Positions 1,191 through 49,200 of a stretch of DNA of 64,000 bases are shown here, in pieces. The stretch is from positions 22,878 to 86,877 of the forward strand of contig JAFGWT010000273.1 in assembly GCA_016937015.1 (NCBI GenBank), written 5' to 3'. The notes below the pieces were generated by a model. The model was not told the origin of the DNA and ran no database searches. It worked only from the letters and a program-made list of their open reading frames with translations. A program made the translations under genes and the position numbers. This DNA comes from Deltaproteobacteria bacterium (GTDB lineage Bacteria > Myxococcota_A > Polyangia > JAAYKL01). Positions within the stretch are counted from its first letter, which is position 1, and each line of letters starts with the position of its first letter.

Positions 1191-1384
1191 TTTATCATCC
1201 TCGCGTGAAAATCAGGCATTCTAATACTACATTAAGCCCTGGCTGGTAAACCCATTTCATTTTTGGGCTGTGACATAATACGAATTTGCCGTATAACCAT
1301 ATTCCACTGAACATTTGCAGGGGTTTGCTTCCGGCGGATCGCGCAACTGACAATAGACGTTCATGGAAAACGGGGGAATATAAA

Positions 1385-2140
1385 ATGAACACCGACGCCA
1401 TTGTGTACGACCAAATGATGCAGGAGATTACATCGATTCCGCCACACAAGACACTCTCGCCATCTATGCCGATGGACGCTTACATACAGGAAGCGTTGCT
1501 GCTCCACCACTGGACGCAAGCCGACCACGACGCCCTGTTAAAGGCCGGCCTCTCTGAAACGCTGCTTGTTGATTTGCCGTATCGTGCCAACGCCGCACGT
1601 GAAGCACAGACAATCTGGCGAAATTTTCTGGAGGGTCAAAGTGAAGCACAGCAGCGATGGCGCATCGAAACCGCTGAGGCATACGAGCTTCGCGACGAGC
1701 TGATTCACGTGATGAAATATGCATATCGCGAAGAGGCAAATGCGATGTCAAAATTGATGCAAATCTGTGATTATGACAAAAATTTTGATTTAGTATCCGA
1801 CCTGCACGAACTCGCCTCACTGGGACGCGAAAACCTATCGCCACTGCGCAACGTCGGATTCAATCTTGCCCGGCTGGAACAGGCAGCAGTGCTGAGTCAC
1901 GGCATGCGTCAATTGATGGATGCCGCGGCGGGGACTGACACTCTGGTCAAAACGGTTCGCGACCAGGCATATACCTATCTAAAGGAGGCGGTTGATGCGA
2001 TTCGGGAATGCGGACTTTGCGTATTCTGGCAAAATCCGGAAAGGCGCAAGGGGTACGAAAGCAACACACTACGTCGTAAAGAATACAGTCGGAACGACGT
2101 TACCCAACCCTATGTGGCCACCAAATCATTAGGCAAATAA
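1385..2140 (+). CDS. Hypothetical cytoplasmic protein
   Basis: Long ORF; likely start ATG 1385 (MNTDAIVY) preceded by GGGGGAATATAAA; no recognizable motif. Confidence 0.45.
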   Translation: MNTDAIVYDQMMQEITSIPPHKTLSPSMPMDAYIQEALLLHHWTQADHDALLKAGLSETLLVDLPYRANAAREAQTIWRNFLEGQSEAQQRWRIETAEAYELRDELIHVMKYAYREEANAMSKLMQICDYDKNFDLVSDLHELASLGRENLSPLRNVGFNLARLEQAAVLSHGMRQLMDAAAGTDTLVKTVRDQAYTYLKEAVDAIRECGLCVFWQNPERRKGYESNTLRRKEYSRNDVTQPYVATKSLGK

Positions 2141-2300
2141 AATAATCTCACAGCTACGCGGCAACCTTCCTTTTCCAGCTCTGCGGAAATCATCAGTTCT
2201 TCATCAAATTTAGTTTTCCATATGACTTTTCAAGATAAACCTGAACCTTTTTGAATCGTTTGGATCACATAATTCATGTAACCGTTACCTCTAAAAAAAA

Positions 2301-2321
2301 TGCAACCGAATGTCGGTTGCA
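2301..2321. other. Perfect 9-bp stem hairpin (TGCAACCGA-atg-TCGGTTGCA) flanked by A8 upstream and T4 downstream
   Basis: Inverted repeat read directly; sits between the upstream gene end (2140) and the ECF sigma start; possible bidirectional terminator/attenuator. Confidence 0.35.
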
Positions 2322-2333
2322 ACGTTTTAATCC

Positions 2334-2999
2334 ATGTCCGGCAGCGAACGAAAAACGGGAATTGCAATGAAAAGACAGGATGACGAAAAGCTGTACCAGG
2401 ACGCCCTGGGAAAAATTGATGTGTTGAAGTTATATGACACATATTATGATGACATCTTTCGGTATGTATTGAATCGCACGGGAGATGTTGAGATGTCTCG
2501 GGACATCACCGCCGATGTATTCTTTAAAGTGTATCGGCACCGCTGGAAGTATGTGTTTACCAGCGCCCCTGTCTCCGCGTGGCTGTATCGCATTGCGGGC
2601 AACGAAGTGGTCTCTGCGCATCGCAACACAACACGCCGTCCTCTGCTGCTGGATGGCGAACTGCAGCACAGTGATGTTGTGCCCGTGGCATTGCGCGGAG
2701 ATTTGCAGGAGGAAATACAGCAGGCGCAGGAACAGGTCAATCGCAATGCTGCTTTTCAACGGGTTAACCAGCAGCTGAAAAAACTGCCCTCTAAGTATCA
2801 GGAAGTGATTGTATTGAGATATTTGGAAGAAAAAAGCATAAAGGAAATCGCCCTCTTACTTGGAAAACGGGAAGGCACGGTAAAATCTTTAATATCACGA
2901 GGCATTAGCCAACTAAAGCGCATCAGCTTTACCGAGAAGGATTTTTTTGCGCAAAATGGGCTGCTCGTTGAAGCGCGCACCAATGAAGGAGTGAACTGA
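2334..2999 (+). CDS. ECF-type (group IV) RNA polymerase sigma-70 factor
   Basis: Region-2-like YRIAGNEVVSAHRN and region-4 HTH EVIVLRYLEEKSIKEIALLLGKREGTVKSLISRGISQLK; true start possibly ATG 2366 (MKRQDD); stop TGA overlaps next start (TGATGATG at 2997-3004). Confidence 0.8.
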   Translation: MSGSERKTGIAMKRQDDEKLYQDALGKIDVLKLYDTYYDDIFRYVLNRTGDVEMSRDITADVFFKVYRHRWKYVFTSAPVSAWLYRIAGNEVVSAHRNTTRRPLLLDGELQHSDVVPVALRGDLQEEIQQAQEQVNRNAAFQRVNQQLKKLPSKYQEVIVLRYLEEKSIKEIALLLGKREGTVKSLISRGISQLKRISFTEKDFFAQNGLLVEARTNEGVN

Positions 3000-3838
3000 T
3001 GATGAGTCAGCACCCTGTTGAATTTGATTTGAAAGCGGCCAGACTGACTGATATTCGGATGGATAAAAATCGGACTTCCACTCGACGGGCTTTGCAGTCC
3101 GCGACTGAATACAGCTGCGTGCAGGCAAAGAAAAAACGTGTGGTCAGAGTCATCTTTTCCATGGGGGTCACGTTTGGTTTTGTGCTGGGTATTGTATGCG
3201 TTTGGATGCTGCAGCCGGCACCACAGCCGACGGTGGTTAAAGTGGCCACCAATCTGGGTTCAATATGGTGTACATACAGCGACAACGCCACAGGAGGCAG
3301 TTCAGTAGTTTGGCCTCCGGAATCCACGGAGGGGCAAAACAACTTTGTAAAAAGCGCACCGGGGTATGGAGACAAAGGGTATGCTGTGCGTTTCAAAGGA
3401 AAAGCAGGAGAACGCAGCCGAGAGGGATTTATTGGGGTTAGTACCCGCCTGGGCCCCCCATGCCAGTTCACTGGCTGCAATGGCGTCAATATTCAGAAGT
3501 TTAATAAAATCAGATTTAAAATGAAAGGCGCGGTATCCAGCGGTGAACTGGTGCTGCTCATTTCGAATGATGACGCGGCCGTCAATTCGGAGACCGAAGC
3601 TGTGTCAATGTTGGCTTCCGCAGATGTCTATGAAGCACAAATAACTGAATTTGTTTCTGATGAATGGCGCACTGTGACCCTTGACCTGAGATCAGATTTT
3701 GCGTTTGTAAAGGATGATGCAGGGGGGGCGCAGAAAGCAGACGACATTTTGGCGGATGCCAAAAACCTGAAATGGCACGTGCGTAACGCCAAGGGTGCTG
3801 ATGTCGATGTATGGATTGATGAGCTCGAATTCTTTTAA
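2999..3838 (+). CDS. Single-pass membrane anti-sigma factor with C-terminal extracytoplasmic carbohydrate-binding-module-like beta-sandwich domain
   Basis: Translationally coupled to the ECF sigma; ~50 aa cytoplasmic N-terminus, one TM (VIFSMGVTFGFVLGIVCVWML), then a ~200-aa domain paralogous to the secreted protein at 3903-4580 (shared ..LEFKMKG..SGG.L.V.L.., W.TV.L.LR.DF.., ..VWIDE/D..F/Y). Confidence 0.55.
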   Translation: MMSQHPVEFDLKAARLTDIRMDKNRTSTRRALQSATEYSCVQAKKKRVVRVIFSMGVTFGFVLGIVCVWMLQPAPQPTVVKVATNLGSIWCTYSDNATGGSSVVWPPESTEGQNNFVKSAPGYGDKGYAVRFKGKAGERSREGFIGVSTRLGPPCQFTGCNGVNIQKFNKIRFKMKGAVSSGELVLLISNDDAAVNSETEAVSMLASADVYEAQITEFVSDEWRTVTLDLRSDFAFVKDDAGGAQKADDILADAKNLKWHVRNAKGADVDVWIDELEFF

Positions 3839-3902
3839 AACAGTAAACCGCAATCGATAAACTGTTTTCGGTTGCCTGGTTTTGATTCGCAAGGAGAATG
3901 GA

Positions 3903-4580
3903 ATGAAATATACAACCCTCACCATCATAATACTTTCAATTTTGGTTTCGCTGCCTGTACTGGCTGGTAAAAAGAAATTGCACATCGACAGTTTTAGCGA
4001 CGGCAACAACGCTTCCGAACAGGGGGGGTGGTGGTACGTATACGACGATGCGCGATTGGGCGGTAACACAGAAGTCACACCACTGGGCCCTCTGAACCCG
4101 ACGAAATGTGGCGACAAGCAGGGGTTTGCCGCGCATGTGGAAGGCACCACCGGCAACAAACTCGGGTGGGACTATTTTGGATTTGGCGTCACACTGGCAT
4201 CAGACTCCGGATGTCCTGGCGGTCAAAAAGTGGACATCAGCGGGTACAGCACCCTTGAATTCAAAATGAAAGGCGATGCCTCCGGCGGACGACTGACTGT
4301 CACACTGCTTCATACCAGTGACAAGTGTGAAGGTTTAGTGCCTGAGACGCTTACACACTGGGCCGACTATGAAGCCAGCGTTACATCTGAACTGACCGGC
4401 CAATGGACAACCGTGCGCCTTAACCTGCGCAACGATTTTTCCCAGCCCAAATGGGCCAAACCCGAGGACAAAGTATCAATTGAAGCCGTGCTCAAACAGG
4501 CCAGCCAGATTCAATGGCACTACTCCAGCGCCGACGGGGACAACCTCAGCGTATGGATTGACGACATTTATCTGTATTGA
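3903..4580 (+). CDS. Secreted protein consisting of a CBM-like domain paralogous to the anti-sigma sensor domain
   Basis: AAGGAG RBS 6 nt before ATG 3903; signal peptide MKYTTLTIIILSILVSLPVLAGKK; domain-wide similarity to residues ~85-279 of the upstream anti-sigma factor. Confidence 0.6.
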   Translation: MKYTTLTIIILSILVSLPVLAGKKKLHIDSFSDGNNASEQGGWWYVYDDARLGGNTEVTPLGPLNPTKCGDKQGFAAHVEGTTGNKLGWDYFGFGVTLASDSGCPGGQKVDISGYSTLEFKMKGDASGGRLTVTLLHTSDKCEGLVPETLTHWADYEASVTSELTGQWTTVRLNLRNDFSQPKWAKPEDKVSIEAVLKQASQIQWHYSSADGDNLSVWIDDIYLY

Positions 4581-4586
4581 TGGCGT

Positions 4587-6878
4587 TTACTCCGTCAGCG
4601 TCACTGTGCCTTTGAGCCGAATATCGGCGGATGACGCACCAATAAGAACTTCCATTTCACCTGGTTCAGTCACAAACTGACTGGCGCTCATGTCAAAAAA
4701 GCCAAGATCCTTCGCATGAACAGTGAAGGCCAGTGTTTGAACTTCGCTCGGTACCAGGCTGACTCTCTTAAATCCCTGAAGTTTCTTTATCGCGACTGGA
4801 ACCGTGGCGTCCATGTCGCGAATGTACACCTGGGCCACTTCGTCCCCTTCTCTCTCCCCTGTGTTCATTACATCAAATGAAATGGCGATGTCCCCATTTA
4901 CATCAGTCGATGGAGACAGGGTTAGATTGCTGTACTCAAACTGTGTGTAACTTAGGCCATATCCGAAGGGATACAGCACTTCTCCCTCAAAAAACATATA
5001 GGTGCGTTTGCCCTGGATGATGTCGTAATTGTCCATGGCAGGTAAATCCTCGATTGATTTAAACCAGGTTTGCGGGAGCCGTCCGCCTGGGTTCTGATTT
5101 CCAAAAAGCACGTCGGCAATGGCTTTGCCCGCTGCCTGTCCGCCATACCCCGCATTGATAATGGCAGGAAGGTTTTCGTCTGCCCAATTGATGGCCAGAG
5201 GCATGCCTGTGACCAGCACGAGTATGGTATTGGCATTTACAGCCTGTACAGCGCGCAACAGTTCCTCCTGAATAGCGGACAGCGTGATGTCGTCGCGATC
5301 CTTCTCTTCGTCGGCCACGCTCAAATCGGTTCCAAGGACGACAATTGCAGCATCTGCAGATGCTGCGATGGCCGTTGCATCCTCGATACTCGACGTTTCT
5401 GACTCTCCTGGAATCGCTGCCCCCTCGGCAAACAAAACGGATATGCCAAATTTTTCAGCTTCTGCTGTGATGCCATCCAAAGGGGTCACCGGCGCTGCGG
5501 CCGTACCGCTGTATCCGCCAAACACCAATCGATTCGCATTGGGGCCGATGACCGCGAGAGACGACACGGTGGTGCCTTCGAGGGGAAGAATTCCGTCATT
5601 CTTGAGCAGTATCATAGATTTGATGGCTGCTTTTTCTGCCAGCATCCGATTGTCGGGACTGTCCAGCGCAGAATTTGGGATGGCACGGTAAGGCACATTC
5701 TGGGGCGCATCAAATTCGCCAAGCATAAAACGCGCGGTAAAAAGCCGTGTCAGCGCCTGATCCACTTCGGCTTCGCTGATAACGCCCAGTGCAACGGCTT
5801 CCACAATATCCGCCTGATAACGATCGCCACAATTCAGATCCGTCCCCGCGGCAATGGCAACATCAGATGCTTCAATATCCGTTTCGGCGTATTTATGATT
5901 TTCCACAATGTCACGAATTGCCCAGCAATCAGAAACCACATATCCCCCAAATCCCCATTCGTTTCGTAGCACATCTGTTAGCAGCCATGAGTTGGCGCAC
6001 GAGGGAATGCCGTTAACGCGATTGTAGGCACACATTACCGATTGCGCCCCTCCCTCCACCACTGTGGCTTTAAACGCCGGCATATAAAATTCACGGAGGT
6101 TGCGTTCATCCATATCTGACGATCCGGTGTGGCGCGTCGCCTCAATGTTGTTCGCAATAAAGTGTTTGGGGGTAGACACCGTTTTTAAAAATATCGGATC
6201 GTCGCCCTGCATGCCGCGCACGAATGCGACTCCCATGCGAGAGGTCAGATACGGGTCTTCGCCATAGGTTTCCTCATTGCGACCCCATCTGGGGTCTCTC
6301 GCCAGATTGACAGTGGGACTCCAGTAGGTCAGTGGCTTTTTCTGCACATTGTTTTTCACTCGCGCCTCTGTTGAAATGACAGTTGCGACCTCGAATACCA
6401 ACTGATCGTCAAAAGTGGCTGCGAGCGAAACAGCCTGAGGAAAAACAGTGGCAATCCCGGCTCGGGCCACGCCATGCAGCGCTTCGTTCCACCAATCATG
6501 TTCTTCGATATTCAGTCTTGGAATCGCTGGCGCCCGATCTCCCATTTGCGACGCTTTTTCCTCGATAGTCATCCTGGCCACCAACGCTCTGGCGCGGGAC
6601 ACAAAGTCCGTATCCACAGCCGTCAGCGCGGTGTCAGTATCGATATTGGCGGTATCGCTCTCCCCTGCGGTAGCGGTTTCGGTATCGGCTGCCGTGTCAG
6701 CATTTGTATCGGGTAAATCCGTTGATGCGGTCCCCGTTTCCACGGAGTCTGTGCCAGGATAGACTGAATCGCCGTCGCTGTCGTTATTTTTAGAGAGAGT
6801 TGTGCACCCCATAGGGGAGACCATCCAGATTATCCATGTCAGGTATATCATCCCACTTCTGGCAGACCCATTTATCAT
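4587..6878 (-). CDS. Glycoside hydrolase family 3 (beta-glucosidase/beta-xylosidase-like) lipoprotein with acidic T/D-rich N-terminal linker and C-terminal Fn3-like domain
   Basis: GH3 nucleophile motif GFGGYVVSDCWAI, KHFIANN, RDPRWGR; lipobox MVSPMGC; low-complexity DTNADTAADTETATAGESDT linker. Confidence 0.85.
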   Translation of the reverse strand: MINGSARSGMIYLTWIIWMVSPMGCTTLSKNNDSDGDSVYPGTDSVETGTASTDLPDTNADTAADTETATAGESDTANIDTDTALTAVDTDFVSRARALVARMTIEEKASQMGDRAPAIPRLNIEEHDWWNEALHGVARAGIATVFPQAVSLAATFDDQLVFEVATVISTEARVKNNVQKKPLTYWSPTVNLARDPRWGRNEETYGEDPYLTSRMGVAFVRGMQGDDPIFLKTVSTPKHFIANNIEATRHTGSSDMDERNLREFYMPAFKATVVEGGAQSVMCAYNRVNGIPSCANSWLLTDVLRNEWGFGGYVVSDCWAIRDIVENHKYAETDIEASDVAIAAGTDLNCGDRYQADIVEAVALGVISEAEVDQALTRLFTARFMLGEFDAPQNVPYRAIPNSALDSPDNRMLAEKAAIKSMILLKNDGILPLEGTTVSSLAVIGPNANRLVFGGYSGTAAAPVTPLDGITAEAEKFGISVLFAEGAAIPGESETSSIEDATAIAASADAAIVVLGTDLSVADEEKDRDDITLSAIQEELLRAVQAVNANTILVLVTGMPLAINWADENLPAIINAGYGGQAAGKAIADVLFGNQNPGGRLPQTWFKSIEDLPAMDNYDIIQGKRTYMFFEGEVLYPFGYGLSYTQFEYSNLTLSPSTDVNGDIAISFDVMNTGEREGDEVAQVYIRDMDATVPVAIKKLQGFKRVSLVPSEVQTLAFTVHAKDLGFFDMSASQFVTEPGEMEVLIGASSADIRLKGTVTLTE

Positions 6879-7233
6879 CCGTTGCTCCTTCGTTTATCAC
6901 CGCATACATCACATACGTCACGTACGTCTTTATGATTATCGTTTTTTCCAGCTCGCATATATCACCGCAGCCTTCAAAAGTCGATTCAATCCCAAACCGA
7001 ATCTAATCGGCCGCAGTTCCGAGCAGCGAAGTATTTGAAAATAAATTTTAGTATTTAGTCGATGATAAGGATGGTGTTTCCACTGTATCGCAAAAATTAT
7101 TAACAGCAACAATCTGAATATGAAAACATAATACTTCTTACGATAGATTGCATATCCGATGGGAAGCAAAGCACCACCATTGTTGCACCTGAGTGTGTGC
7201 CTGGGATGAGCGACGATCACTCAAAACAGACAA

Positions 7234-7779
7234 TCAAGCCATGTCCGGAGGGGGATCCAGATAACCGATTTCCGGGAGGTTTCGGTATTTGCCAGCGAAA
7301 TCGAGGCCGTATCCGATTACAAACTTATCAGGCACTTCGAAGCCCAGATAATCGATGGGAACCTCGACTTTGGTGCGAGAGGGTTTGTGCAGCAATGCGG
7401 CCAGCGCCAGCGACGCGGGATTTCGAGTACGCAAATTTTTGATCAGATAATCAAGCGTAAGCCCGGTATCCACAATATCCTCAACAATGAGAACGTGCTC
7501 CCCCATGAGTGGATGTTTCACATCCATGGTAATTTCAACCACCCCTGACGTGGTCATTCGATCACCATAGGATCGCAGACCGATAAACTCCACATTTATG
7601 GGCAATTCAATGGCCCGTACCAAGTCAGCGGCAAACACATAGCTGCCTTTGAGCACCACCAGTACGGTGAGTGGTTTCCCCTTGTAACTTTGGGTAATTT
7701 GAGCGCCGAGCGTCAAAATTCGCTGCGCAATTTCACCACGGGAAAAAAGGGGGTGGTAGTTGGGAGGCAAAAAGGACAT
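7234..7779 (-). CDS. hpt: Hypoxanthine-guanine phosphoribosyltransferase
   Basis: PRTase motif [14 protein letters not shown]; track ORF 7234-8094 is over-extended into purC, true start is internal ATG at 7779 ([21 protein letters not shown]). Confidence 0.85.
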
Positions 7780-7786
7780 CACAATT

Positions 7787-8779
7787 TTACAGCGCCATGT
7801 TTCTGGCAAGACGTGCGTTCGGTTCTTCGGTATTGGGTTCAAACGACTCGCCCGTGATCTGATCACACGCTGCAATATATCTGCGCGCCGCCTCCACTTT
7901 AATCTCATCGGGAATGTGCGGCAGGGGACCATCGCCAACAAAGTTTTTCTCCGTTTTAAGCCACACGCGCACATATTCCTTGTCCAATCCCTGAGGATTT
8001 TCACCTTTTTCGAACAACTCCTGATAGGTGTCGGCCTGCCAGAATCGGGATGAATCCGGTGTATGCACTTCGTCGATAACAACGATACGCCCATCAGCCG
8101 TTTTACCGAATTCGTACTTGGTATCCACCAGAATCAGTCCCTGTCTGGCGCAATGCGCTTGTCCAAAGGCAAAAAGATCCAGGCTCATTTGGGCCATGGC
8201 ATCGAAATCTTCGGCAGAAATGCGCCCAATAGCCAGAATTTCATCACGGGACACCGATACATCGTGATCACCCTGCTCTGCTTTGGTCGATGGTGTTAAA
8301 ATCGGTTTCTCCAATTTCTGATGAATCTTAAGCCCATCCGGCAACGGATTACCGCAAAAATTCCGAACGCCATTTTTATAATGTGTCCAAATTGATGTTG
8401 ATGTTGAGCCTGTAATATAAGCGCGAACAACCATCTCTACTGGCATGGGCGTACAATCTGCCACGATCATCACTGCGGGATCCGGCGTGGAAACCAGATG
8501 ATTGGGGACCATCCTCGCCGTTTTTTCGAACCAGAACGCCGCCACGCGGTTCAGTACCTGACCCTTGTACGGAATCGTTCCCAAAACCCTGTCGAACGCC
8601 GAAATTCGGTCACTGGTGACAATGTAACGCATACCATCTTTCACGTACGAATTTCGAACCTTTCCCTTTTGCGGTTCTCCATACCCCTCGAGACTGGGGT
8701 CATCAAGTGTTTTTTTTAGTCCTTCTTTTAATATTTGTTCACTTACCATGTTCTCTCCAACAGAATATTTATGTGTCAT
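7787..8779 (-). CDS. purC: Phosphoribosylaminoimidazole-succinocarboxamide (SAICAR) synthase
   Basis: 330 aa with SAICAR-synthetase-like sequence (..GKVR..Y..D.. ..[11 protein letters not shown]..); sits 7 bp upstream of hpt in the same orientation. Confidence 0.8.
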
Positions 8780-34196: not shown

Positions 34197-34328
34197 CCCT
34201 TCCTGGAACTTTTTCGAAAAGTCAGATGTCGATGTAGTCATGCCGATTGGTGCGGATTGGCAGTTGCGGGCAGGATAATTGTGGAATCCAAATTGCAATT
34301 CGAAAAGAGCAACATATACTCACACCAA

Positions 34329-37300
34329 ATGAATCGAATAGGTGTTATATTCAGTCTGCTCTTCTCCCTCTTCGTTCCGGCATATGGGCATACCCATTCA
34401 AAAGCGCTTTCCGCTCTGCAGCGCCAGCCCGATTCGCGGTTTGCAGACTTGCTTGTGTTGCAGATTTTTGACGAATATGCCACGTCAGGAAGAGTCGTTA
34501 TTGAAGCGGAGCTGAATGCAGCACTGAGTCTAAAAAGGCTTGATTGGGCAGCAAGGGACCGTGTCCTCTATCTGTTGGCACAACTGAAAATGATGTCGGG
34601 GGATTACAACACAGCCAACCGGATGTTTGCCGAATTGGGATTTATCACGGACTGGACAATTGTTGGACCGTTCCCACATGAATCCGGTTCAGGAATTACC
34701 GACACGCTTTCGATTAACAGTGAAGACAGCTCCACAACGCCATTAAACCTGCAGGTTGCCCCGAACTGCGTCCCGTCTCTGTCTCGCGGTCCCTGTCAGT
34801 TTTCGACCAGCTGGATGAGCCACAGCATGGGACGAATCAGTTTCGAGCCACTGTTTTCGCCCTCGTCAAACATCTGTACACTGGCGCAAACAACTGTACA
34901 CGTTGACAATGCTGGCGTGCATCAACTGGTTTTTGGCGCTGGAGGGCAGAGTCAAGTCACAGTTGACACAAAAATTGTCCTCACTGACACAAGTGAGTAT
35001 GACGCGGATATTAACCGCCATGCACTGCAGATACCGCTCGAAAAAGGGGCTCACACACTGACAGTTAAGATCTGCAGCGGTGAATCTGGCAGAGCCGGAT
35101 TTTATGCACGTCTGATTGCGCCGGAGGGCCGACCACTGCATTCAGCGAAAGCCAGTCCGTTTGAACCCGTTTCAATGGCAACTCCCGTAAACGCGCCTAA
35201 TAAGTCACCACTTAAGAAAATGACGCCAAGTGAAAAGAGCCGTCTCGCGCATTTGGGATTTTTCGCTCAGTATGCCAAGCATACCGGCGCTGTTGGGAAA
35301 GACACAACTGTATTCGATGCCGCCAGAGCGGCATGTACGTCACTGAAAACCGTTTCATTTTGCAAAACATTTGCCGAATTGTCGGGCGACATCAATACAA
35401 AGCTTCAAGCATGGCGAAACGTTCTTTCCGCCACACCGGAAAACAGGGAAGCAAAACTGGCGATACTGTTACTTCGCGCGCGACACCAGCTTGATTCAGA
35501 TGCTGCTTATGCCCTTCAGGAACTGGCAACTGCAAAAGATGCAGACATCAATTCTCGTTGTGCCCTTCTCGAATATTTCACAATGAATCTTCCACAGACG
35601 GCGCAGCATTTGCGAGTGGCGCATATGGATGATGCCGACATATTGCCTGGAGAGATTCGGTGCATCGCAGACAATCTGAAAGGTATTCCTGTGGACCTGC
35701 ACACGGCTGCACTTTTAGACATGGCGCTGCGGATTGATTTTACGGATTATGATTATCAAATACGCCGAATGAATATGCATGGCCGCACCCTTGAAAACGA
35801 GCTTCCCAAAGTGGCGGCTGCGTGGAAGGGACTTGGCGCGCCACCTGTGCACGGGGTTCGGGCACTCATTGAACTCGCCCGCGGCGCTGGCCTCAACCGA
35901 CTGGCATCCGACCTCGCCAAAGATACACGCCTTTATGCTCCTGCTGTGAGTCTGTATCGCCAGGATGCGGGTAAAGCAGCCCTTTTTACCGATCAGTCCA
36001 TGGGGATAAGCCTGTTAAAGGAAGCATTGGCTCAGTCCCCTCAGAATAAGTCACTAAGAGACTACATCGCGCACATCGAACCCCAACGCAGTTTTGAATC
36101 AGCGTATATTGTGCCCCCGTCAGATTTTTTAAACAACAAACAAAAATGCATATCTCAAAAGACAGATTGTTACCTGGTGAACAACACCATGGTTCGGGTG
36201 CATGAAAACGGCCTTGCATCGTCAGTCTCTCAAATAGTTGTTGCCATCGCTTCTGCAGAGGGAACACGTCAATGGCAGCAATACAGTGAGCAGTTTTCAT
36301 CTAATCAAACAATCCAGGTTCTGGGTGCGCGAATTTATCGTGCAGATGGCAAAGTGGAGCAGGCAACGGGACAGGCCACGTTCCCCGTATCGGAACCATG
36401 GTATCGCCTGTACTACGATATAGAAGCAGAAGTGGTTGAGCTACCCAGCCCTGAAGTGGGTGACGTTGTCGAATTTCAATTTCGAATTGACGATATTGGC
36501 AGCGAGAACATGTTTGGCGAATACTTTGGCACAATCGTTCCAATCAACGCCGAACTTCCGGTCGAATCGTTTCAACTGGTTATCATGCGCCCCAAATCGC
36601 TTCCGCTTCAGTTTGAATCCAGCAAGGCGGTTCGACGCGACGAATGGATTGAAAATGAAACGGTCACCACCGTGTTCAGTGATAAAGGAATTAAAGCAAT
36701 TCCCGACGAACCTGCAGCACCTGGTGCGATGTCGCTGGTCCAGTATGTGCATGCCACCACTTGGACATCGTGGGCCAAAATGGAAGCGTGGTATCGCGCA
36801 CTTATTAAGCCCCAGTTAAGACACGATGCCGAATTAAAAGAACGTGTGTTGGCGCTTACGCACGGGGCAAAATCCAGGCAGGAAAAAATTGCTGCTATTT
36901 ATAACTGGGTTACAACAAATATCCGCTACGTTGGGCTGGAATTTGGAATTCATGGCTATAAGCCATACAGCACCACACAGGTGCTGACCAGGGGTTTTGG
37001 CGACTGTAAAGACACAGCATCGCTCATCGTCACAATGTTAAATGAAGCGGGAATCGACGCACATGTGGCATTGGTCCGAACCCGAACAGCCGGGGAATTG
37101 AATACTCGTTTTCCGTCGCTCGCATTGTTTAACCATGCGATTGCATATGTTCCGGAATTTGATCTTTGGCTGGACGGCACTGCAACATTTCACGGCACAA
37201 CGGATATGCCGTTCGAAGACCAGGGTATCAACGCCCTGGTGATTGGGCTGGCACCGATGTTACCCAGACAAACCAAAACTCTGAGGCCAGAAGACGCCAC

Positions 37301-37934
37301 GTTTGTGCAACACGATGTAATATCGCCAAACCCGGATGGCAGCGCAGCTATCGCGAGCACAGTTACCGCTTCCGGATCCCCTTTTGCGCCATGGCTGAGA
37401 AGCACATTTGCATCTGCGCAACGACAGGATATACTGGAAAACCATTTTTCTGACATGTATTCCGCTGTTACAATAGACCATGCTGACTTTACAGAATTTA
37501 GCCCATTGTCCCCCTCCCCTGTCATAACATTTCAAGGAAACATCCCATCACTTTTTATATTAAAAAGGGGTATTGCGACATTCCGTGCAGCGCCGCCCCT
37601 GAATCTGAAGCAGAAATTCGCCCCCATTGCTAAACGGCAGCATGCGCTGCAAATTGGCCCGGCTCGAAAAGCAACCTACACGGTCCGATATCTGTTGCCG
37701 GCTGGATTTGTTTCAACAACTGAGCCATCCGTCGCGTCAGTTCACACAAAATTTGGTACATATCAACGGGAAATCCAATCCGAAACAAATTGCATCACGG
37801 TGTCGCGTACCTTCGAGATCAATCAACCCCTTGTGCCTGCGTCGCAATATGGTGAATTTGTCAAATTCACTCGTGATGTGGACGTACTCGAAAAAGCGCA
37901 GATTTCAATAAAACAACAGGAGATCACACCGTAA
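34329..37934 (+). CDS. Large secreted multidomain protein with transglutaminase-like cysteine-protease-fold domain (Cys-His-Asp present) and DUF3857-like architecture
   Basis: Signal peptide MNRIGVIFSLLFSLFVPAYG; TGase core GFGDCKDTASLIVTMLNEAGIDAHVALV..FNHAIAYV..WLDGTA. Confidence 0.6.
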   Translation: MNRIGVIFSLLFSLFVPAYGHTHSKALSALQRQPDSRFADLLVLQIFDEYATSGRVVIEAELNAALSLKRLDWAARDRVLYLLAQLKMMSGDYNTANRMFAELGFITDWTIVGPFPHESGSGITDTLSINSEDSSTTPLNLQVAPNCVPSLSRGPCQFSTSWMSHSMGRISFEPLFSPSSNICTLAQTTVHVDNAGVHQLVFGAGGQSQVTVDTKIVLTDTSEYDADINRHALQIPLEKGAHTLTVKICSGESGRAGFYARLIAPEGRPLHSAKASPFEPVSMATPVNAPNKSPLKKMTPSEKSRLAHLGFFAQYAKHTGAVGKDTTVFDAARAACTSLKTVSFCKTFAELSGDINTKLQAWRNVLSATPENREAKLAILLLRARHQLDSDAAYALQELATAKDADINSRCALLEYFTMNLPQTAQHLRVAHMDDADILPGEIRCIADNLKGIPVDLHTAALLDMALRIDFTDYDYQIRRMNMHGRTLENELPKVAAAWKGLGAPPVHGVRALIELARGAGLNRLASDLAKDTRLYAPAVSLYRQDAGKAALFTDQSMGISLLKEALAQSPQNKSLRDYIAHIEPQRSFESAYIVPPSDFLNNKQKCISQKTDCYLVNNTMVRVHENGLASSVSQIVVAIASAEGTRQWQQYSEQFSSNQTIQVLGARIYRADGKVEQATGQATFPVSEPWYRLYYDIEAEVVELPSPEVGDVVEFQFRIDDIGSENMFGEYFGTIVPINAELPVESFQLVIMRPKSLPLQFESSKAVRRDEWIENETVTTVFSDKGIKAIPDEPAAPGAMSLVQYVHATTWTSWAKMEAWYRALIKPQLRHDAELKERVLALTHGAKSRQEKIAAIYNWVTTNIRYVGLEFGIHGYKPYSTTQVLTRGFGDCKDTASLIVTMLNEAGIDAHVALVRTRTAGELNTRFPSLALFNHAIAYVPEFDLWLDGTATFHGTTDMPFEDQGINALVIGLAPMLPRQTKTLRPEDATFVQHDVISPNPDGSAAIASTVTASGSPFAPWLRSTFASAQRQDILENHFSDMYSAVTIDHADFTEFSPLSPSPVITFQGNIPSLFILKRGIATFRAAPPLNLKQKFAPIAKRQHALQIGPARKATYTVRYLLPAGFVSTTEPSVASVHTKFGTYQREIQSETNCITVSRTFEINQPLVPASQYGEFVKFTRDVDVLEKAQISIKQQEITP

Positions 37935-40900
37935 TGAGCAATCTTCCCCAATGGGCTAATTCCGCGCGAGTGATGGCTCTAATATTCTTTGTGCTGGGGT
38001 GTGCCGCCGCTCATTCTCCTGCACACAAAACAGAAACATTAAGCGAAAACCGGACTTTTCTTTCTGCGCCAACAATACCACAGCTGGAGAAGCAATTTAA
38101 GTCCAGCAACCGTGAAGGCGATCTGTTTGTTTTGGCCACTCTTTACGACAAGACTGGTCGCCCTGAATTGGCTTTCAACACATATATTCAGGCAATGGAT
38201 GCAGCCAGTATATCCCCCGGACTTTACTGGGAAGGCATAGGTGCAGCCATTGGCATTGTCAATATCCGGCGCCGGGTAAGGGACTTTGAAAACAGGATTT
38301 ACCCGCATCTCATGAAATGGTCGGCTTCCCCCGGTGCGCTTGCGCCGGAAGCGTTGTATCAGTTACGCACGCTAACGTTCTCCTTCGCACTAAAAAAAGG
38401 AAAGATGAAGCACGCCAGCCAATTGCTGAATCAAACCGGTTGCATCACAGATTGGCTGGTCGCCGGCCCCATCGCGACCGACAAGCGCGGCGCAATTAGC
38501 AGCAAACAGCTTCTGGATTCACGCGTGTGGCCGAGGGAAATTGACGCGGGTGCCGGCCGTCCAAATATGCCTGTGGTTCATAAATCGCTTGGAATCTGCC
38601 AATTGACTGCGCCCCCGGTATCCTCTGCCAGTACAGGCACAATCATTGGCACAACAGCAATACATGTTTCATCGACGGGAGATGCCAGTTTCAGACTGCA
38701 TTCAACATCTGATTCAAAAATTTTTATTAACGGCCATCAGGTGTATTCCCAGCAGAGTCAGACACGTTGGCTTCCGGAAACCCGTTGGTTTACCGTATGG
38801 CTTCCCGCAGGCCACCACCAGATTACCGTGCAGGTATTTTCACCCACTTTTGAACCATCTTTTTCGTTGAGCGTATTGTCATCCAGTCAACGCCCACTGA
38901 CTAACAACAGCACAACCCTGCCAGTGACTACAGAATACAAACCCAATAAAGGCATTACACGCATTGATTCAAAGATGACGGGTGAGTCAACCATTCTGGC
39001 GAGAATGCAATATGCGCTTTGGAACGTGGATCCATACGAGTGGCAAGAATATGCAAAAATGCTCGATGAGAAGTTGCCGCTGCACCGGTTATTCATCGCG
39101 GCGTATCAGCTGATGACTCCGTTCAACGCGCCCGAGGTTGCCATGGAAAGCGCCAGACATCTCTACGCTGGCGTGTTATCAAAAATGCCTACTGCGTTCG
39201 AAGCGTCGGTTTATCTGGCCAAACAGGCGCACAGCAACGGCCGCACCGAAGAATCGATTGGCATGCTTAAAAACGCAATCGCCGCGATGCCTGATGAGCC
39301 AATGCTGCCACTGGTGCTTACTGAAATTGCGTTTGAAAAGGAATGGATACCCGAAACGAGAAAATACCTCTCAATGGCAACCGATATGCTCGGTGACAAC
39401 TGCGAAACCCTGCAATGGAGATATGCTGTTGCGTTGCATGAAAAAAAATTTGATGCGACAATGCAGCTTGCTCACTCAATCAGCCAATGCGCCGCATCAT
39501 CCACTGATTTGGCCACAGAACTCACCAGAGAGGGAGATTTTATGGGCGCCTCAAATATTTTGTGGCGACAGGCCAAACGGCAGCCCAATTCGATGTCGGC
39601 ACAATTAGATGCAGCGCTGAGTTTTGCCCGTTCCGGTGCCCCGGATAGAGGCATCGAATTATTAGAGATTACCCACAGGCAATTTCCACTTTCCAACACG
39701 CCAGTTTTACACCTGATTGACGCGTATCTTGCTTCCAACAAAACTGAGAAGGCACAGGTACTATGCCACCTACAGCACCGAATGCCATCTGATCCTCAAA
39801 CACTCCTTGCGTGTGAGTCGGTCGAACTGACAAACCCGCTTGGTATGTATCGGGTGGATGGACTGAAAACGGTCAATCAGTTTATCAAGAGAGATGACAA
39901 ACCGAAATCGGACTTTTCATGGGTACTGGATCGGACAGTTTACGCGGTTGACAGGTTTGGCACAGGTAATCAATTGGTGCACTCGATTGGATACATCAAT
40001 TCACAGGATGCGGTCTCCGAGTACGGCGAGTTGAGTATTCCTTACGGATCAAAAGTTTTGCAGGCGCGTGTCATCAAACCATCGCTTGAGCAGTTTTATC
40101 CAACACTGGTCGAAGGTAAACCGGGGCTATCGCTGCCCAATCTGGCCGTCGGCGATTTTGTCGAATTGGAAACAATAAGTGCCATTCCTGCGCATTCTGT
40201 ATTTCCAGGCGGGTTCGACACCGAGCCCTTTTATTTCCGGGACTTTAATTCGGCATTCGTAAGATCGGAACTGATAGTCGTTGCGCCTGAATCGTTTAAT
40301 CTGCAATTCGATACACGAGGCGCCGCTCCTCCACCTGTCCATCATTCACTGAACGGAATGCAGGTCGTCACTTTTCGAACCAGAGACCAGCATCCGTTGC
40401 GAATTGAACCGGACACACCGGATGCCCGGGAGTTTTTACCTTCAGTGCGCATTACAGCCCACGCGTCCATTGAATCGGTATGTCAAAATATTAACGAACA
40501 GTTGTATGCGATGTCACAATGGTGTCCGGAGATTGACCAGACGATAACTCGCAGCATCGTCAAACAAAACAATCGCGACGCAAAAATCGAGGCGATATAC
40601 AATTGGATCTCTTTAAACATTGAGGATGACATGATACTGTTTGAGCCTGCCGCCCATGTACTAAGCCGAAAAAGAGGTAGTCGTGCCCGGCTGTTTATAC
40701 AAATGCTCGCACAGGCAAATATCGATGCAGAACTGGGGTTGGCAATGACTGCGTTCGATGACCATACACCCGCTACCGTTGCTGATGTGAACCGCTATAC
40801 GGTTCCTGTGGTTAAATTGCCGAACGGTAAATGGATCAGTTTTCAGGAACGACATGCTCCTTTAGGGACCTTACCTTCGGAGTTGCGACATCAGCCGGTT

Positions 40901-41590
40901 TTGCTGCCCAAAAATTGCCGTATTGAAAAGACAGATGCGGGCACTGTCCCATTTGAAAGTTCCACTGTTACCGCCGAACTAAACATTGATCAACAGGGGA
41001 ACGCAACAGGAACAGTAACCGAACTGATTGAAGGCGATACCGCAGCCATACTTCGGTCGCTACTGGAGAGTCCCGAATCCGAACACCGGAAGCTTTTCGA
41101 GGAACATTTACTGTCGGCTCTTTTCCCGGATGCAGTGCTCACAGCATTTTCCGTGGAAAACACGCGCGAGGTTCAACTACCACTCAAAATAGTATACAAT
41201 GTAGCCGTTTCACAGATCATCAAACAGGCCAATAATGTCGCACGCATGTTCGTTCCTATGCCAGTCAGTTTTGAACAGTTCACCAATGGCATTGCCAGTC
41301 GTGAATTGCCACTTGTATTGGCAACATATCTAAAAAACAGCCGTAAAATACATTTAAACCTGCCGTCCAATATGATCATTCAACAGCTGCCCGAAAATCA
41401 CTGTGAACAATCAGCCAACACCGTCGCGAGCTATTGTATGCAATTCAAATCCTCAGAAGACTCAATATACATAGATATGGAAGCCATTATTAATATCCAG
41501 CGAATCCCGGCCAGACACTACACGGATTTTCAGAATTTCATACTGACAACCAAACAAATGAACAGTTCATCTATTGATATCCAATACTAA
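37934..41590 (+). CDS. Paralogous large lipoprotein with degenerate (Cys-less) transglutaminase-like domain
   Basis: Lipobox FFVLGCAAA; N-terminal region homologous to upstream gene (G(F/C)ITDW.(V/A)GP); TGase position reads KRGSRARLFIQMLAQANIDAELGLA (no Cys/His); start overlaps upstream stop (TAATG). Confidence 0.6.
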   Translation: MSNLPQWANSARVMALIFFVLGCAAAHSPAHKTETLSENRTFLSAPTIPQLEKQFKSSNREGDLFVLATLYDKTGRPELAFNTYIQAMDAASISPGLYWEGIGAAIGIVNIRRRVRDFENRIYPHLMKWSASPGALAPEALYQLRTLTFSFALKKGKMKHASQLLNQTGCITDWLVAGPIATDKRGAISSKQLLDSRVWPREIDAGAGRPNMPVVHKSLGICQLTAPPVSSASTGTIIGTTAIHVSSTGDASFRLHSTSDSKIFINGHQVYSQQSQTRWLPETRWFTVWLPAGHHQITVQVFSPTFEPSFSLSVLSSSQRPLTNNSTTLPVTTEYKPNKGITRIDSKMTGESTILARMQYALWNVDPYEWQEYAKMLDEKLPLHRLFIAAYQLMTPFNAPEVAMESARHLYAGVLSKMPTAFEASVYLAKQAHSNGRTEESIGMLKNAIAAMPDEPMLPLVLTEIAFEKEWIPETRKYLSMATDMLGDNCETLQWRYAVALHEKKFDATMQLAHSISQCAASSTDLATELTREGDFMGASNILWRQAKRQPNSMSAQLDAALSFARSGAPDRGIELLEITHRQFPLSNTPVLHLIDAYLASNKTEKAQVLCHLQHRMPSDPQTLLACESVELTNPLGMYRVDGLKTVNQFIKRDDKPKSDFSWVLDRTVYAVDRFGTGNQLVHSIGYINSQDAVSEYGELSIPYGSKVLQARVIKPSLEQFYPTLVEGKPGLSLPNLAVGDFVELETISAIPAHSVFPGGFDTEPFYFRDFNSAFVRSELIVVAPESFNLQFDTRGAAPPPVHHSLNGMQVVTFRTRDQHPLRIEPDTPDAREFLPSVRITAHASIESVCQNINEQLYAMSQWCPEIDQTITRSIVKQNNRDAKIEAIYNWISLNIEDDMILFEPAAHVLSRKRGSRARLFIQMLAQANIDAELGLAMTAFDDHTPATVADVNRYTVPVVKLPNGKWISFQERHAPLGTLPSELRHQPVLLPKNCRIEKTDAGTVPFESSTVTAELNIDQQGNATGTVTELIEGDTAAILRSLLESPESEHRKLFEEHLLSALFPDAVLTAFSVENTREVQLPLKIVYNVAVSQIIKQANNVARMFVPMPVSFEQFTNGIASRELPLVLATYLKNSRKIHLNLPSNMIIQQLPENHCEQSANTVASYCMQFKSSEDSIYIDMEAIINIQRIPARHYTDFQNFILTTKQMNSSSIDIQY

Positions 41591-46210: not shown

Positions 46211-49200
46211 ATGTCTGATTTTTTTTATACCGTTTTTATCTATCCATTGGAATTTCTGATGAAGTGTGTGATGGAAACGGTTCTGAATAATACGGGAGAC
46301 CCCATTCTTTCTCTCGTTGCTGTAAGCGCGTTTGTTTCAATTGGGTCATTACCGCTGTATCACATTGCCGAGAAATGGCAGGACAACGAACGGGCCATTC
46401 AGGAAAAGCTTCAACCCAAAATAAGAGAATTTAAAAGCGTATTCAAAGGCGCCAGCCTCAACGCTTATATTCAAACGCTGTATCGACAAAACGAGTATCA
46501 TCCGGTAATGGCGATTCGTGCTGTATTGGGGATACTGATTCAGATTCCCTTCTTCATCGCCGCTTACCATTTGCTATCCGAATATCCGGCATTCGAGGGC
46601 GTTTCCGCTATATTTTTTAACGATCTGGGTCGCCCGGATGGTTTGATCAAACTTGGAAGTTTAAGTATCAATGTGCTTCCTTTCCTGATGACTGGCGTCA
46701 ATATTCTGTCCGCAGTGATTTACGGCAAGAAACTTGGGACAAAGGAAAAAATTCAAACATATGGCATCGCCGGCGTATTTCTTGTGGCGTTGTATTCATC
46801 GCCGGCATCTCTTCTCTTTTACTGGACATCAAACAACATTTTCAGTCTGGCCAAAAATGGCATATATCGACTGATTTATCCTGACGGAAGAATTAAATCC
46901 ACGCAGCAGAATGAAACACGGATCTGGCCAATATTTCTTCGGATTTCCGCGTTGCGCCCCTCGACATGGGGACAGATAACTCTGTTTGTTTTAACGCTGG
47001 CGCTGTATCTCATTGCGCCGGAATTCACAAAGCCTAACTCTGAAACACAGGGACAGCTTTATGGCCTGATCTACACCGTGTTGCTAATGCTGGGCGGATT
47101 GACGATCGCTGGCGCGCTGGCCAATAAAACAATGCGACGCAGCGCCAGAAATACGACTGCCGCGGTTTATGGCATCGTTGTTCTTATTTCATTGGGACTG
47201 CAACTGGTATGGATGCTGAATGTGGTGCCGGACGTTAAATTCACCCAATACGCCGCCAATAGCCTGTTCGCTTTAATGTTTTTTAACGGCGCGCGCAGTG
47301 TTTTCGCTCTCTGGTCCAACTGGATAGCAAAAAACGAACTTGAAGTCACCACACGCCCCGGGACGCTGTTTGCGCTTGCCGTGCTGACCCTCCTGACCAC
47401 AATTTTTATTGCTGTCCCGTTGCCGCTTGTTTCAACCGCCAGTGTTGGTGATTTCGAAAAATCGCTTTCTTATTATCTATTTTTTATGCTGATGCTGGTT
47501 GTTTCCTTTTTTATACTCAGCTGCGTTGTGTATTCGTATCTGTCCAGAGCATCCCGTAGCCTCCTTATCTACATCATCAGTTTCCTTGCAATCCTGTCAC
47601 TGGTCAATGCCTTCGTGTTTGCAGGCGAATACGGTGATATGAGCAATTTCAATTTCGAAAATGGTCTGCCGGAAGAACCCGTCGCCAAAATCGTAAATAT
47701 GTTTGTACTCATCATCATTGGCGGCGGACTCATTCTGCTGTTTCTCAAACGTTTGTACAAATGGCTGTTGCCAGTGTGGATCATATGCCTGCTGTCAATC
47801 GGTGTTGTGACTGTCAGCGAAAGCCATCGGTTTTACCAAAAGAGTCAAAAGATATCCCTTAAGTTCGCGCAGGCTTCGCAGCTTGACAAGCAATTTGTTT
47901 TTTCGAGGACGCAGCCAAATGTTCTGGTGATCATGCTTGACCGATTTGTTGGAGGTATGGTGCCCAAAGCATTTGAGCTGGCGCCGGTGTTAAAGAGTCA
48001 GTTTGAAGGATTCACGTGGTATCCGCAATATTTTTCCGATGGTGCATTCACCATTTTAGGGGTGCCTTCGCTGATGGGGGGATGGGAATATCATACAAAA
48101 GAAGTGCAATATACGCGCACGACAATGCCACTCAAACAGAAGCTGGACGAGTCTGCCAGAGTACTGCCATACAATTTCAACAAAGCCGGTTATCAAACAA
48201 CCGTTTTTGCCGATCTTGAGGCATACTTTGATCCCGAAAACAGGAAATACATTGAGCGAACAAAATTTGCGTCATTGAAAGCCCAATACAAGGACCTTTG
48301 GCTGCAGGAGCATCAAAAAAAACTCAAAGAAGATAATGTCAGAGGAAAGCTGGCTATCTTTGGACTTTTCCGAACAGCTCCACCGATATTGCGAAACTAT
48401 ATTTACGACAATGGTGACTGGTTACTCGGTTCGAAGGCAAAAAACACTGACATGGGAAACAAAAGCATCATAGGGGACAAACAGGTATCATTCCTGACAA
48501 CAAATGATGCGCAGATAAATCGTGCTGTTGAAGGGTTCAGCACGCTATACTTTTTGCCTCGCCTGTCAGCAACATCCGACAAAGCGCATAAACAGTTTTA
48601 CTATTTCTCAAATGCATTCACCCACGAACCGGTTATAGCGAACGCGAATTTTGACTTGTCTGTTCACGAGCGAATTTTCTACCCAAGGGATGTGTACGAC
48701 GAGTTTGATGAAAGTATGTATACACTGCAGCATCTGTACACCGACACAACCGCCCTTGTGGCGATTGGAAAATGGTTCGAGTGGATGAAGCAGAACGATG
48801 TATACGACAACACAAAAATAATAGTGGTTTCCGATCATGGCAGAAATGTTTACGATCCTGTTTTAAAATCTCAGAAAATCATCAGTTCACTCAACGCTAA
48901 AAAGCCCGATGCGTCATGGTTTCATGGTTTACTCATGGTGAAGGATTTTGGGCAAAAAGGGGCCATGCGAAAAAGCAATCAGTTTCTCACGACGTGTGAT
49001 GTTCCGTGGCTGACCATGAAAGACATTGTCACCAATCCAATCAACCCGACATCGAAAAAGAAAATCGTGTTCAACGCAGACAGGTATCCATTCTCCATGT
49101 TTTTCACGCCACCGATGATCTGGCAGCAGACAAAATATAAATACAAGGTGAAAGATATTTTCGAGATTCAGCGTAAAAATGATGTCCTGGATCCGGCGAA

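Follow-up and report, generated by a model that had tools for sequence, protein, structure and literature searches.

We analysed a 64,000-nucleotide stretch of contig JAFGWT010000273.1 from a Deltaproteobacteria bacterium (assembly GCA_016937015.1), which we refer to as the window. Between positions 2334 and 6878 it carries four long open reading frames (ORFs): a gene for a sigma factor of the extracytoplasmic function (ECF) type, a gene for a single-pass membrane protein that is its putative anti-sigma factor, a gene for a secreted paralog of the outer domain of that membrane protein, and, on the opposite strand, a gene for a glycoside hydrolase (GH) of family 3. The ORF listing of this region recovers all four where an earlier reading of the sequence (the original prediction) had placed them, confirming the arrangement, and we are highly confident of the anatomy of sigma factor, membrane protein and paralog as set out in Table 1. 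These three genes probably constitute a self-contained, autoregulated ECF signalling cassette with a periplasmic sensor that resembles a carbohydrate-binding module (CBM) and a soluble paralog of that sensor; the GH3 gene, we propose, lies beside them by chance and is not controlled by the sigma factor.

Table 1. Features of the cassette and its convergent neighbour (window positions)
Feature	Position	Strand	Description
ECF-type promoter	2294..2330	+	A-tract, -35 TGCAACC, 15-nucleotide spacer, -10 CGTTTTAA
ECF sigma factor gene	2334/2367..2999	+	221 amino acids from 2334; sigma-2 and sigma-4 (Pfam, TIGR02937)
Membrane protein, whole gene	2999..3838	+	279 amino acids
Cytoplasmic N-terminus of membrane protein	2999..3142	+	about 48 amino acids, helical; putative sigma-binding segment
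Single transmembrane helix, N-terminus inside	3143..3211	+	about residues 49-71 of membrane protein
CBM11/CIA30-like beta-sandwich sensor domain, extracytoplasmic	3245..3838	+	residues 83-279; AlphaFold2, Foldseek
Secreted (periplasmic) paralog of sensor domain	3903..4580	+	225 amino acids with signal peptide
GH3 glycoside hydrolase	4587..6878	-	763 amino acids; convergent neighbour, outside the conserved module

Sigma factor and membrane protein

The sigma protein matches the Pfam families Sigma70_r2 (PF04542) and Sigma70_r4_2 (PF08281, E 1.3e-15), which are its sole domains, and the general NCBIfam model for ECF sigma factors (TIGR02937, sigma70-ECF) at 82.4 bits against a cut-off of 42.9, placing it in group 4 (ECF). 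No model for a specific ECF subgroup in NCBIfam reached its cut-off, and the solved structures closest to the protein are SigW and SigL. An ORF does open at 2334, as had been described, but the gene very probably starts at the ATG at 2367, because the starts of homologues are called at the equivalent methionine (L001 and L002, in our numbering of the genomic and metagenomic neighbourhoods that were compared by tblastn) and because the -10 element of the promoter ends at 2330. At the junction with the membrane-protein gene (cTGATGATG) the TGA stop codon (2997-2999) overlaps an ATG (2999-3001) by 1 nucleotide and is followed by a second ATG (3002-3004), in agreement with the translational coupling that had been claimed for the two genes; they also overlap or nearly abut in the relatives L001, L002, L003 and L021.

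The membrane protein has no match in Pfam or NCBIfam at E 0.01. The layout that had been described for it (a short cytoplasmic N-terminus, one transmembrane span and a beta-sandwich of about 200 residues) is seen in its AlphaFold2 model (mean predicted local distance difference test [pLDDT] 73.8), in which a cytoplasmic part of about 48 residues precedes a single transmembrane helix (about 49-71) and a beta-sandwich (about 87-278) that starts about 12-15 residues beyond the helix. The model has helices at residues 7-12 and one unbroken helix at 25-71, and the sequence has a KKKRVVR stretch followed by a glycine-rich hydrophobic segment. All 27 relatives found in a collection of 5.8 billion sequences share this architecture at a length of about 270-290 residues, and the cytoplasmic pattern E..L..A.L....L..NR...R.AL is kept across phyla.

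We regard this protein as the putative anti-sigma factor because its gene is translationally coupled to that of the sigma factor and strictly co-occurs with it, because its topology is that of a single-pass protein with the N-terminus inside, and because the cytoplasmic helix is conserved. The pairing of an ECF sigma factor with a putative transmembrane anti-sigma factor that had been predicted here is supported. Residues 1-48 lack the HxxxCxxC motif, so that the protein falls outside class I of the anti-sigma factors (ZAS/zf-HC2, RskA or RsiW-type); a cytoplasmic part of about 48 residues is the size of class II anti-sigma factors such as CnrY. In the sensor domain, residues 104-134 (window 3308-3400; VWPPxSTxxQNNFVKSAPGYGxKGYAVRFKG) are near-invariant in 27 of 27 relatives, and AlphaFold2 gives a pLDDT below 50 at residues 106-120 despite this conservation. 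Many related lipoproteins have a motif resembling xPGYGxxGYA, as do the GH5 and GH10 modules considered below, and the stretch, to judge from its sequence, probably belongs to a functional (binding) surface.

The domain shared by sensor and paralog

A homologous domain had been said to be encoded as a free secreted protein right downstream, and this holds: the 3903-4580 product is 30% identical to the sensor domain over 205 amino acids (BLASTP, E 3e-22) and has a type-I signal peptide (MKYTTLTIIILSILVSLPVLA, then GKK). Its ATG at 3903 is preceded by a good Shine-Dalgarno sequence (AAGGAG), and the frame is also opened by a TTG at 3882. NCBI labels the protein 'CIA30 family protein'; in Pfam and NCBIfam it has no match at E 0.01. 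At least 68 relatives are present in the 5.8-billion-sequence collection, and the 64-kb window holds no copy of the shared domain beyond those in the membrane protein and the paralog.

The fold was compared by Foldseek with structures in the PDB. For the AlphaFold2 model of the paralog (pLDDT 91.8, predicted template modelling score [pTM] 0.85) the first match is the CBM11 of Clostridium thermocellum Lic26A-Cel5E (E 1.5e-8, target-normalized template modelling score [TMt] up to 0.72), followed by CBM30, NDUFAF1/CIA30 and CBM8, and for the anti-sigma model the top matches are CBM11 (1v0a/6r31; E 4e-7, TMt 0.67), CIA30 (7zkq_A), CBM30 (1wzx) and SGBP-B (5e7g). Both models are beta-jelly-rolls that superimpose on CBM11 (1v0a, 6r31 and 6r3m; E 1.5e-8 to 4e-7, TMt 0.64-0.72), at an identity to the CBM11, CBM30 and CIA30 structures of only 12-18%. 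With CBM11 at the top of both rankings, the carbohydrate-binding-like fold that the original prediction had proposed for sensor and paralog is borne out; sequence searches of both window proteins against PDB chains returned nothing meaningful.

Relatives of the two proteins were also scanned leniently against Pfam (67 relatives of the paralog and 27 of the sensor; the matches are weak, with E up to 1 for the sensor set), and the matches fall consistently within one clan. CIA30 was found in 42 of the 67 paralog relatives, CBM30 in nine and CBM_11 in six, and among the 27 sensor relatives SGBP_B_XBD was found in 12 and CBM_11 in eight. Family alignments have an N-terminal W...D...GG(S/N) signature, which we take to be typical of CIA30-like domains. 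An exhaustive profile search for the domain family yielded 541 cluster representatives at E <=1e-3, many of them large multidomain proteins, and a Pfam scan of 18 of the large ones found GH8 in eight and GH5, GH10 and CotH in one each, the others being surface or type IX secretion system (T9SS) repeat proteins or strings of successive CIA30/CBM_11 domains. Most of these 18 also have CIA30 or CBM_11 matches above threshold. The window paralog shares 33-37% identity (E 1e-32 to 6e-42) with the modules at the N-termini of the GH5, GH10 and CotH proteins, more than it does with the anti-sigma factor's own domain (30%). The module is thus found within carbohydrate-active enzymes in relatives of the family, as distinct from the window proteins themselves.

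At the level of fold and family, the shared domain is CBM-like and of the CBM11/CIA30 type, a module habitually carried on beta-glucanases and xylanases, and we somewhat favour a glycan as the ligand of the ectodomain. A different reading would make the beta-sandwich a CIA30-like module that binds protein or lipid instead of sensing a glycan, the cassette an envelope-stress circuit (responding, for example, to misassembled envelope proteins) and the paralog a periplasmic chaperone. CIA30 is, after all, the most frequent Pfam match of the paralog relatives, NDUFAF1 is among the top structural matches, carbohydrate genes are lacking in most cassette neighbourhoods and ECF systems are classically envelope-stress systems; but the nearest multidomain relatives are overwhelmingly GHs (GH8 in eight and GH5 and GH10 in one each of the 18 above), and CBM11 ranks above CIA30 structurally for both models. 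We consider an envelope-stress circuit unlikely.

Conservation, promoter and predicted regulon

Genes for sigma factor, membrane protein and paralog follow one another in this order at about 16 distinct loci, which come from Deltaproteobacteria/Polyangia (Myxococcota) metagenome-assembled genomes, uncultured Fibrobacter, Spirochaetia, Goldiibacteriota, candidate division FCPU426 and unassigned metagenome contigs. The paralog adjoins the membrane-protein gene in most loci with downstream sequence; tblastn found no adjacent paralog after that gene in L030, L036 and possibly L032. These loci are among the distant cassettes (L030/L031/L034, L032 and L036), and in L036 the membrane-protein gene is followed instead by a weaker promoter-like site (score 15.8, on the scale described below) pointing at a gene further downstream. 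The paralog is better conserved than the sensor, at 81% identity to its nearest relatives against 73-75% for the sensor/membrane protein.

This pattern bears on the role of the paralog. It could be RseB-like, binding the periplasmic domain of the anti-sigma factor and shielding it from a site-1 protease until a ligand displaces it, which would make it a co-regulator and not an output, a role compatible with glycan sensing. The gene order mirrors rpoE-rseA-rseB, the duplication is ancient with the pair kept together in most lineages examined, and the stronger conservation of the paralog points the same way; on the other side stand the two loci without an adjacent paralog (L030 and L036) and an unlinked, promoter-bearing copy in L042 that looks more like an output gene. 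Taking both sides together, we give the shielding role a low probability.

The flanks of the cassette are unrelated between loci. Upstream, ThiF and an ORF of 254-284 amino acids occur only in the closest relatives (62-69% identity). In the window this is the 284-amino-acid ORF at 1286-2140 (+), between ThiF and the sigma gene, which has no Pfam or NCBIfam match, is 51-54% identical to its counterparts in the closest relatives (L001/L006 and L007/L021) and is absent from distant cassettes; because it is kept only in the closest relatives, it probably lies outside the module. A CotH-family gene is the sole recurrent neighbour, in six of about 16 distinct cassettes: it is divergent from the sigma gene in Fibrobacter-type loci (L013/L017/L018, L019/L033 and L020) and directly 3' of the paralog in L003, L026 and L037. 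One relative, P0108, is a fusion of the CBM-like domain with CotH. The 64-kb window has no CotH homologue.

In ten loci out of ten, the motif [T/C]GCAAC[C/G]-N15(14-16)-CGTT (GCAT in two loci) occurs once, and once only, in the 260 nucleotides upstream of the sigma gene, with an A-tract ahead of it in the myxobacterial clade and a T-tract after AAC in the other loci. The window site (TGCAACC-N15-CGTT, 2294-2330) has the AAC at -35 and the CGT at -10 that are classic marks of an ECF promoter, here an autoregulatory one. We built a position weight matrix (PWM) from the ten sigma-upstream sites only. With this matrix the window site, itself part of the training set, scores 34.3, against 17.9 for the runner-up in the window and a maximum of 16.9 in shuffled sequence, and two sigma-upstream sites outside the training set score 26.3 (L019) and 25.5 (L020). 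Non-redundant loci totalling 317 kb have 23 sites scoring >=17, compared with two in shuffled sequence.

Other high-scoring sites suggest further members of the regulon. Where the membrane-protein gene is not translationally coupled to the sigma gene, second sites occur right upstream of it (L013/L017 24.1, L036 28.3, L010 17.8, L014 17.0 and L004 15.4), and sites face the adjacent CotH gene in L019 (23.0), L020 (24.7), L003 (20.8) and L017 (17.4). The CotH-linked coordinates are 9689-9725 in L003, 7251-7215 in L017, 7302-7266 in L019, 6796-6760 in L020, 3583-5412 in L026 and 1209-3668 in L037. A 69%-identical relative (GCA_016935665.1, L042) has an unlinked second copy of the paralog (7001-7675) with an upstream site scoring 28.4 (6719-6755); this copy adjoins an Mrp antiporter operon and TIR/STAND genes. 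By the motif, the cassette itself, further paralog copies and cassette-adjacent CotH-family genes are predicted as targets. In the window, an internal promoter for the paralog was considered and rejected (best PWM score 4.0 in the 64-nucleotide gap that separates it from the membrane-protein gene), and the shortness of this gap and the separate Shine-Dalgarno sequence suggest that the paralog is co-transcribed with the upstream genes.

Several other sequence features were met in the course of these scans. The next best window site, 31379-31344 (-), was set aside as chance: it has GCATCC for GCAAC and CGAA for CGTT, and its score of 17.9 is at the level of the shuffles. The 346-amino-acid ORF downstream of it has no Pfam match. 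A perfect 9-bp-stem hairpin at 2301-2321 (TGCAACCGA-ATG-TCGGTTGCA) overlaps the cassette promoter at its -35 element and spacer, has A8 upstream and a T-run downstream and scans as a bidirectional intrinsic terminator; it is partial in L002 and L007 and absent in L001, and may be the terminator of the 1286-2140 gene or a lineage-specific regulatory feature. In L024 (also from GCA_016935665.1) an unlinked CotH gene, which lacks the GCAAC-N16-CGTT motif, is divergent to another ECF-like sigma gene (4052-4783 and 5001-6434; Sigma70_r2, weak Sigma70_ECF), and CotH genes may commonly be paired with ECF sigma factors.

The original prediction had seen in this locus a glycan-sensing switch for the neighbouring GH3 gene or for glycoside hydrolases at large, and had described the neighbour as a convergent beta-glucosidase lipoprotein. 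Family and orientation stand (Pfam Glyco_hydro_3, Glyco_hydro_3_C and Fn3-like); the beta-glucosidase activity is not established, the nearest NCBIfam models being xylosidase Xyl3A and then BglX, both below cut-off, and, given its non-canonical lipobox (SPMGC), a lipoprotein is no more than plausible. Because it is convergent, the GH3 gene is not co-transcribed with the cassette and needs a promoter of its own, and the motif is absent upstream of it: at 6850-7300 (-), which takes in the 355-bp upstream region, no site has a PWM score above 2.2, where the sigma promoter reaches 34.3. Nor is there a GH3 glycosidase within 6-8 kb of the other cassettes (about 15 distinct loci); relatives of 62-69% identity have other genes in its position (a 232-amino-acid ORF in L001, an acetyltransferase in L021). 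The gene was rejected as a sigma target on synteny and promoter scan, and we think it highly improbable that it is one. That the anti-sigma factor senses polysaccharide and the sigma factor switches on this or other GH genes in the manner of SigI/RsgI would agree with the CBM-like fold of the sensor, with the 6 nucleotides between the end of the GH3 gene and that of the cassette, and with GH genes within 8 kb elsewhere (GH10 and GH63-like in L003, GH130 in L017), but, with the motif ahead of no GH gene in any locus scanned and the defining features of SigI/RsgI absent, such control is very unlikely.

A 'PF03321:GH3' match in L020 was left uncounted: the name there denotes the acyl-amido synthetase family of plant type and no glycoside hydrolase. 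The GH3 gene lies downstream of, and on the same strand as, a purine gene pair across the 355-bp gap: a phosphoribosyltransferase (hpt-like) ORF at 7234-8094 (-) overlaps a SAICAR-synthase-like ORF at 7787-8779 (-) by about 300 nucleotides, and the start of hpt is probably an internal methionine near 7770. Elsewhere in the window, two tandem abutting ORFs (34257-37934 and 37934-41590, +; 1225 and 1218 amino acids) both have DUF3857, the first with a transglutaminase-like core and the second with tetratricopeptide (TPR) repeats, and look like a duplicated pair. A 1004-amino-acid ORF at 46211-49225 (+) joins an N-terminal YidC/60KD_IMP insertase domain to a C-terminal sulfatase-family domain in what looks an uncommon fusion.

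Proposed mechanism and known systems

In the mechanism that we propose for the cassette, the single-pass anti-sigma factor would use its short cytoplasmic N-terminus to keep the ECF sigma factor at the inner membrane, and its ectodomain would most likely bind a beta-linked glycan chain or oligosaccharide in the periplasm, as the presence of the family on GH5, GH8 and GH10 enzymes suggests. A change in ligand occupancy would then lead to release of the sigma factor, probably (by analogy with other ECF systems) through regulated proteolysis of its anti-sigma partner. The freed sigma factor would transcribe from its own GCAAC-N16-CGTT promoter, to judge from the conservation of the latter, and this one promoter would drive sigma factor, anti-sigma factor and soluble periplasmic paralog; in related genomes the same promoter, as predicted, also stands ahead of extra paralog copies and adjacent CotH-family secreted proteins. 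The output in the window would be the operon itself, combining positive feedback through the sigma factor, negative feedback through the anti-sigma factor and induction of the paralog. The soluble paralog would be the main output, and could act as an effector that binds glycans in the periplasm, as a buffer for the ligand and so reset the sensor, or as an RseB-like co-receptor with feedback on the sensor.

The host lineages are taken to be diderm. The sensor would for this reason be periplasmic and would see imported or endogenous oligosaccharides and not bulk extracellular polymer. Of the extracytoplasmic sensing that had been predicted, the CBM-like fold thus stands, and exposure to extracellular polysaccharide, as in clostridia, does not.

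On a wider scale, we advance tentatively, as a possibility with less than even chances, that the cassette is a hitherto undescribed ECF module for glycan sensing in the periplasm, distributed over several phyla of bacteria taken to be diderm. Ectodomain and co-induced paralog would form a sensor/buffer or sensor/co-receptor pair, the conserved regulon would comprise secreted proteins of the CBM-like kind together with atypical kinases of the CotH family, and not GHs, and oligosaccharide sensing would be linked to extracytoplasmic CotH function.

Several observations weigh against a glycan-sensing cassette of this kind. The case for the anti-sigma role is contextual, and known anti-sigma domain families are absent among the Pfam matches of the 27 relatives at E up to 1. 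The window proteins have no match to CBM11 (PF03425) at E 0.01 and stay below the gathering threshold of CIA30 (PF08547; 16.4 bits for the paralog and 13.6 for the sensor, against a cut-off of 24), and the family profile finds no CBM11 chain in the PDB by sequence. The shared fold is no proof of carbohydrate binding, given that CIA30/NDUFAF1, which has the same fold, is a protein-assembly factor. Genes for glycan use are not obvious in most cassette neighbourhoods (L001, L002, L004 and L021). The target scan in the source genome covers the 64-kb window only. The promoter is missing from CotH homologues that are not linked to a cassette, in two related genomes (L022 and L024) and on a contig of an unassigned genome (L023), so that control of CotH appears to be limited to cassette-adjacent copies.

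Functionally, the closest analogue of the cassette is SigI/RsgI of cellulolytic clostridia. Both are autoregulated operons of a sigma factor and a transmembrane anti-sigma factor that bears an extracytoplasmic CBM-type module (here CBM-like by fold), and both have CotH in the regulon: the C. thermocellum CotH-dockerin gene cseP is under the polysaccharide-sensing sigma-I6 (PMC4711584), and adjacent CotH genes bear the promoter here (as predicted). The original prediction had drawn this parallel; as a statement of membership it fails. Sigma-I has a sigma-I-C domain in place of sigma-4 (PMC6056542), whereas the cassette sigma factor is a true ECF sigma factor with sigma-4. RsgI has an autoproteolytic juxtamembrane domain (PMC10328401), for which the roughly 12 residues from membrane to sandwich leave no room here, and RsgI_N is not among the Pfam families found at E up to 1 in the 27 membrane-protein relatives. 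The cassette further differs in its periplasmic sensor (the hosts being taken as diderm), in the co-encoded free paralog of the sensor and in having no GH among its predicted targets.

With the proteobacterial sigma-E operon rpoE-rseA-rseB the cassette shares the order of ECF sigma factor, single-pass anti-sigma factor and soluble periplasmic protein, and autoregulation by an ECF promoter whose -35 element contains AAC. Its third protein is instead a paralog of the anti-sigma factor's own sensor domain, with a CBM-like fold, and Pfam scans of the window proteins and their relatives found no homology to RseA_N, RseA_C or RseB (MucB).

Two further groups tie ECF sigma factors to carbohydrates. 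In ECF52 (for example, SCO4117 of Actinobacteria) an ECF sigma factor, a zinc-finger anti-sigma domain, a transmembrane segment and a carbohydrate-binding module are joined in one protein (PMC5826349); there, as here, a membrane span connects an ECF sigma factor with an extracytoplasmic module, which in ECF52 has been proposed to gate activation (PMC5826349). ECF52 is, however, a single polypeptide with a proline-rich linker and is confined to Actinobacteria, whereas the cassette uses two proteins, lacks the ZAS motif, has a different CBM family and adds a secreted paralog. The ECF systems of polysaccharide utilization loci in Bacteroidetes (ECF10, now ECF240) sense carbohydrates through a SusC-like transducer and a FecR-like anti-sigma factor, and are tied to carbohydrate scavenging in diderms (PMC7826278); for the cassette a glycan role is proposed. 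The transducer in those systems is a TonB-dependent outer-membrane protein, whereas here the anti-sigma factor itself bears the binding-like module, and neither a FecR domain (Pfam, window proteins and relatives) nor a TonB-dependent receptor (annotated neighbourhoods) was found.

The domain itself has the beta-jelly-roll fold of CBM11 (Lic26A-Cel5E), CBM30 and CIA30/NDUFAF1, and its relatives in the family are appended to beta-glucanases and xylanases. In contrast to such enzyme appendages, it occurs here both by itself, as a periplasmic protein, and as an ectodomain used in signalling. In the literature we found no paper that joins an anti-sigma factor with CIA30, or that describes the cassette among work on Fibrobacter ECF and anti-sigma factors.

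A lesson for annotation is that the adjacent GH3 gene is not to be labelled a target of the cassette regulator. The defined promoter and compact three-gene part list would be useful for polysaccharide-responsive switches. To our knowledge the function of bacterial 'CIA30 family' proteins has not been studied, and we know of no established function for CotH outside spore formers; the cassette, if the proposal is true, would give a first regulatory handle on both families, and interest in it would rise if the interplay of sensor and paralog and the link to CotH hold. Should the sensor bind a glycan, the cassette would be the equivalent, among ECF systems, of the RsgI biomass sensors of clostridia, in lineages taken as diderm, including Fibrobacter and myxobacteria, simpler than RsgI in that one CBM-like domain sits directly on the membrane span, and unusual in that a soluble copy of the sensor domain would be induced by the same promoter.

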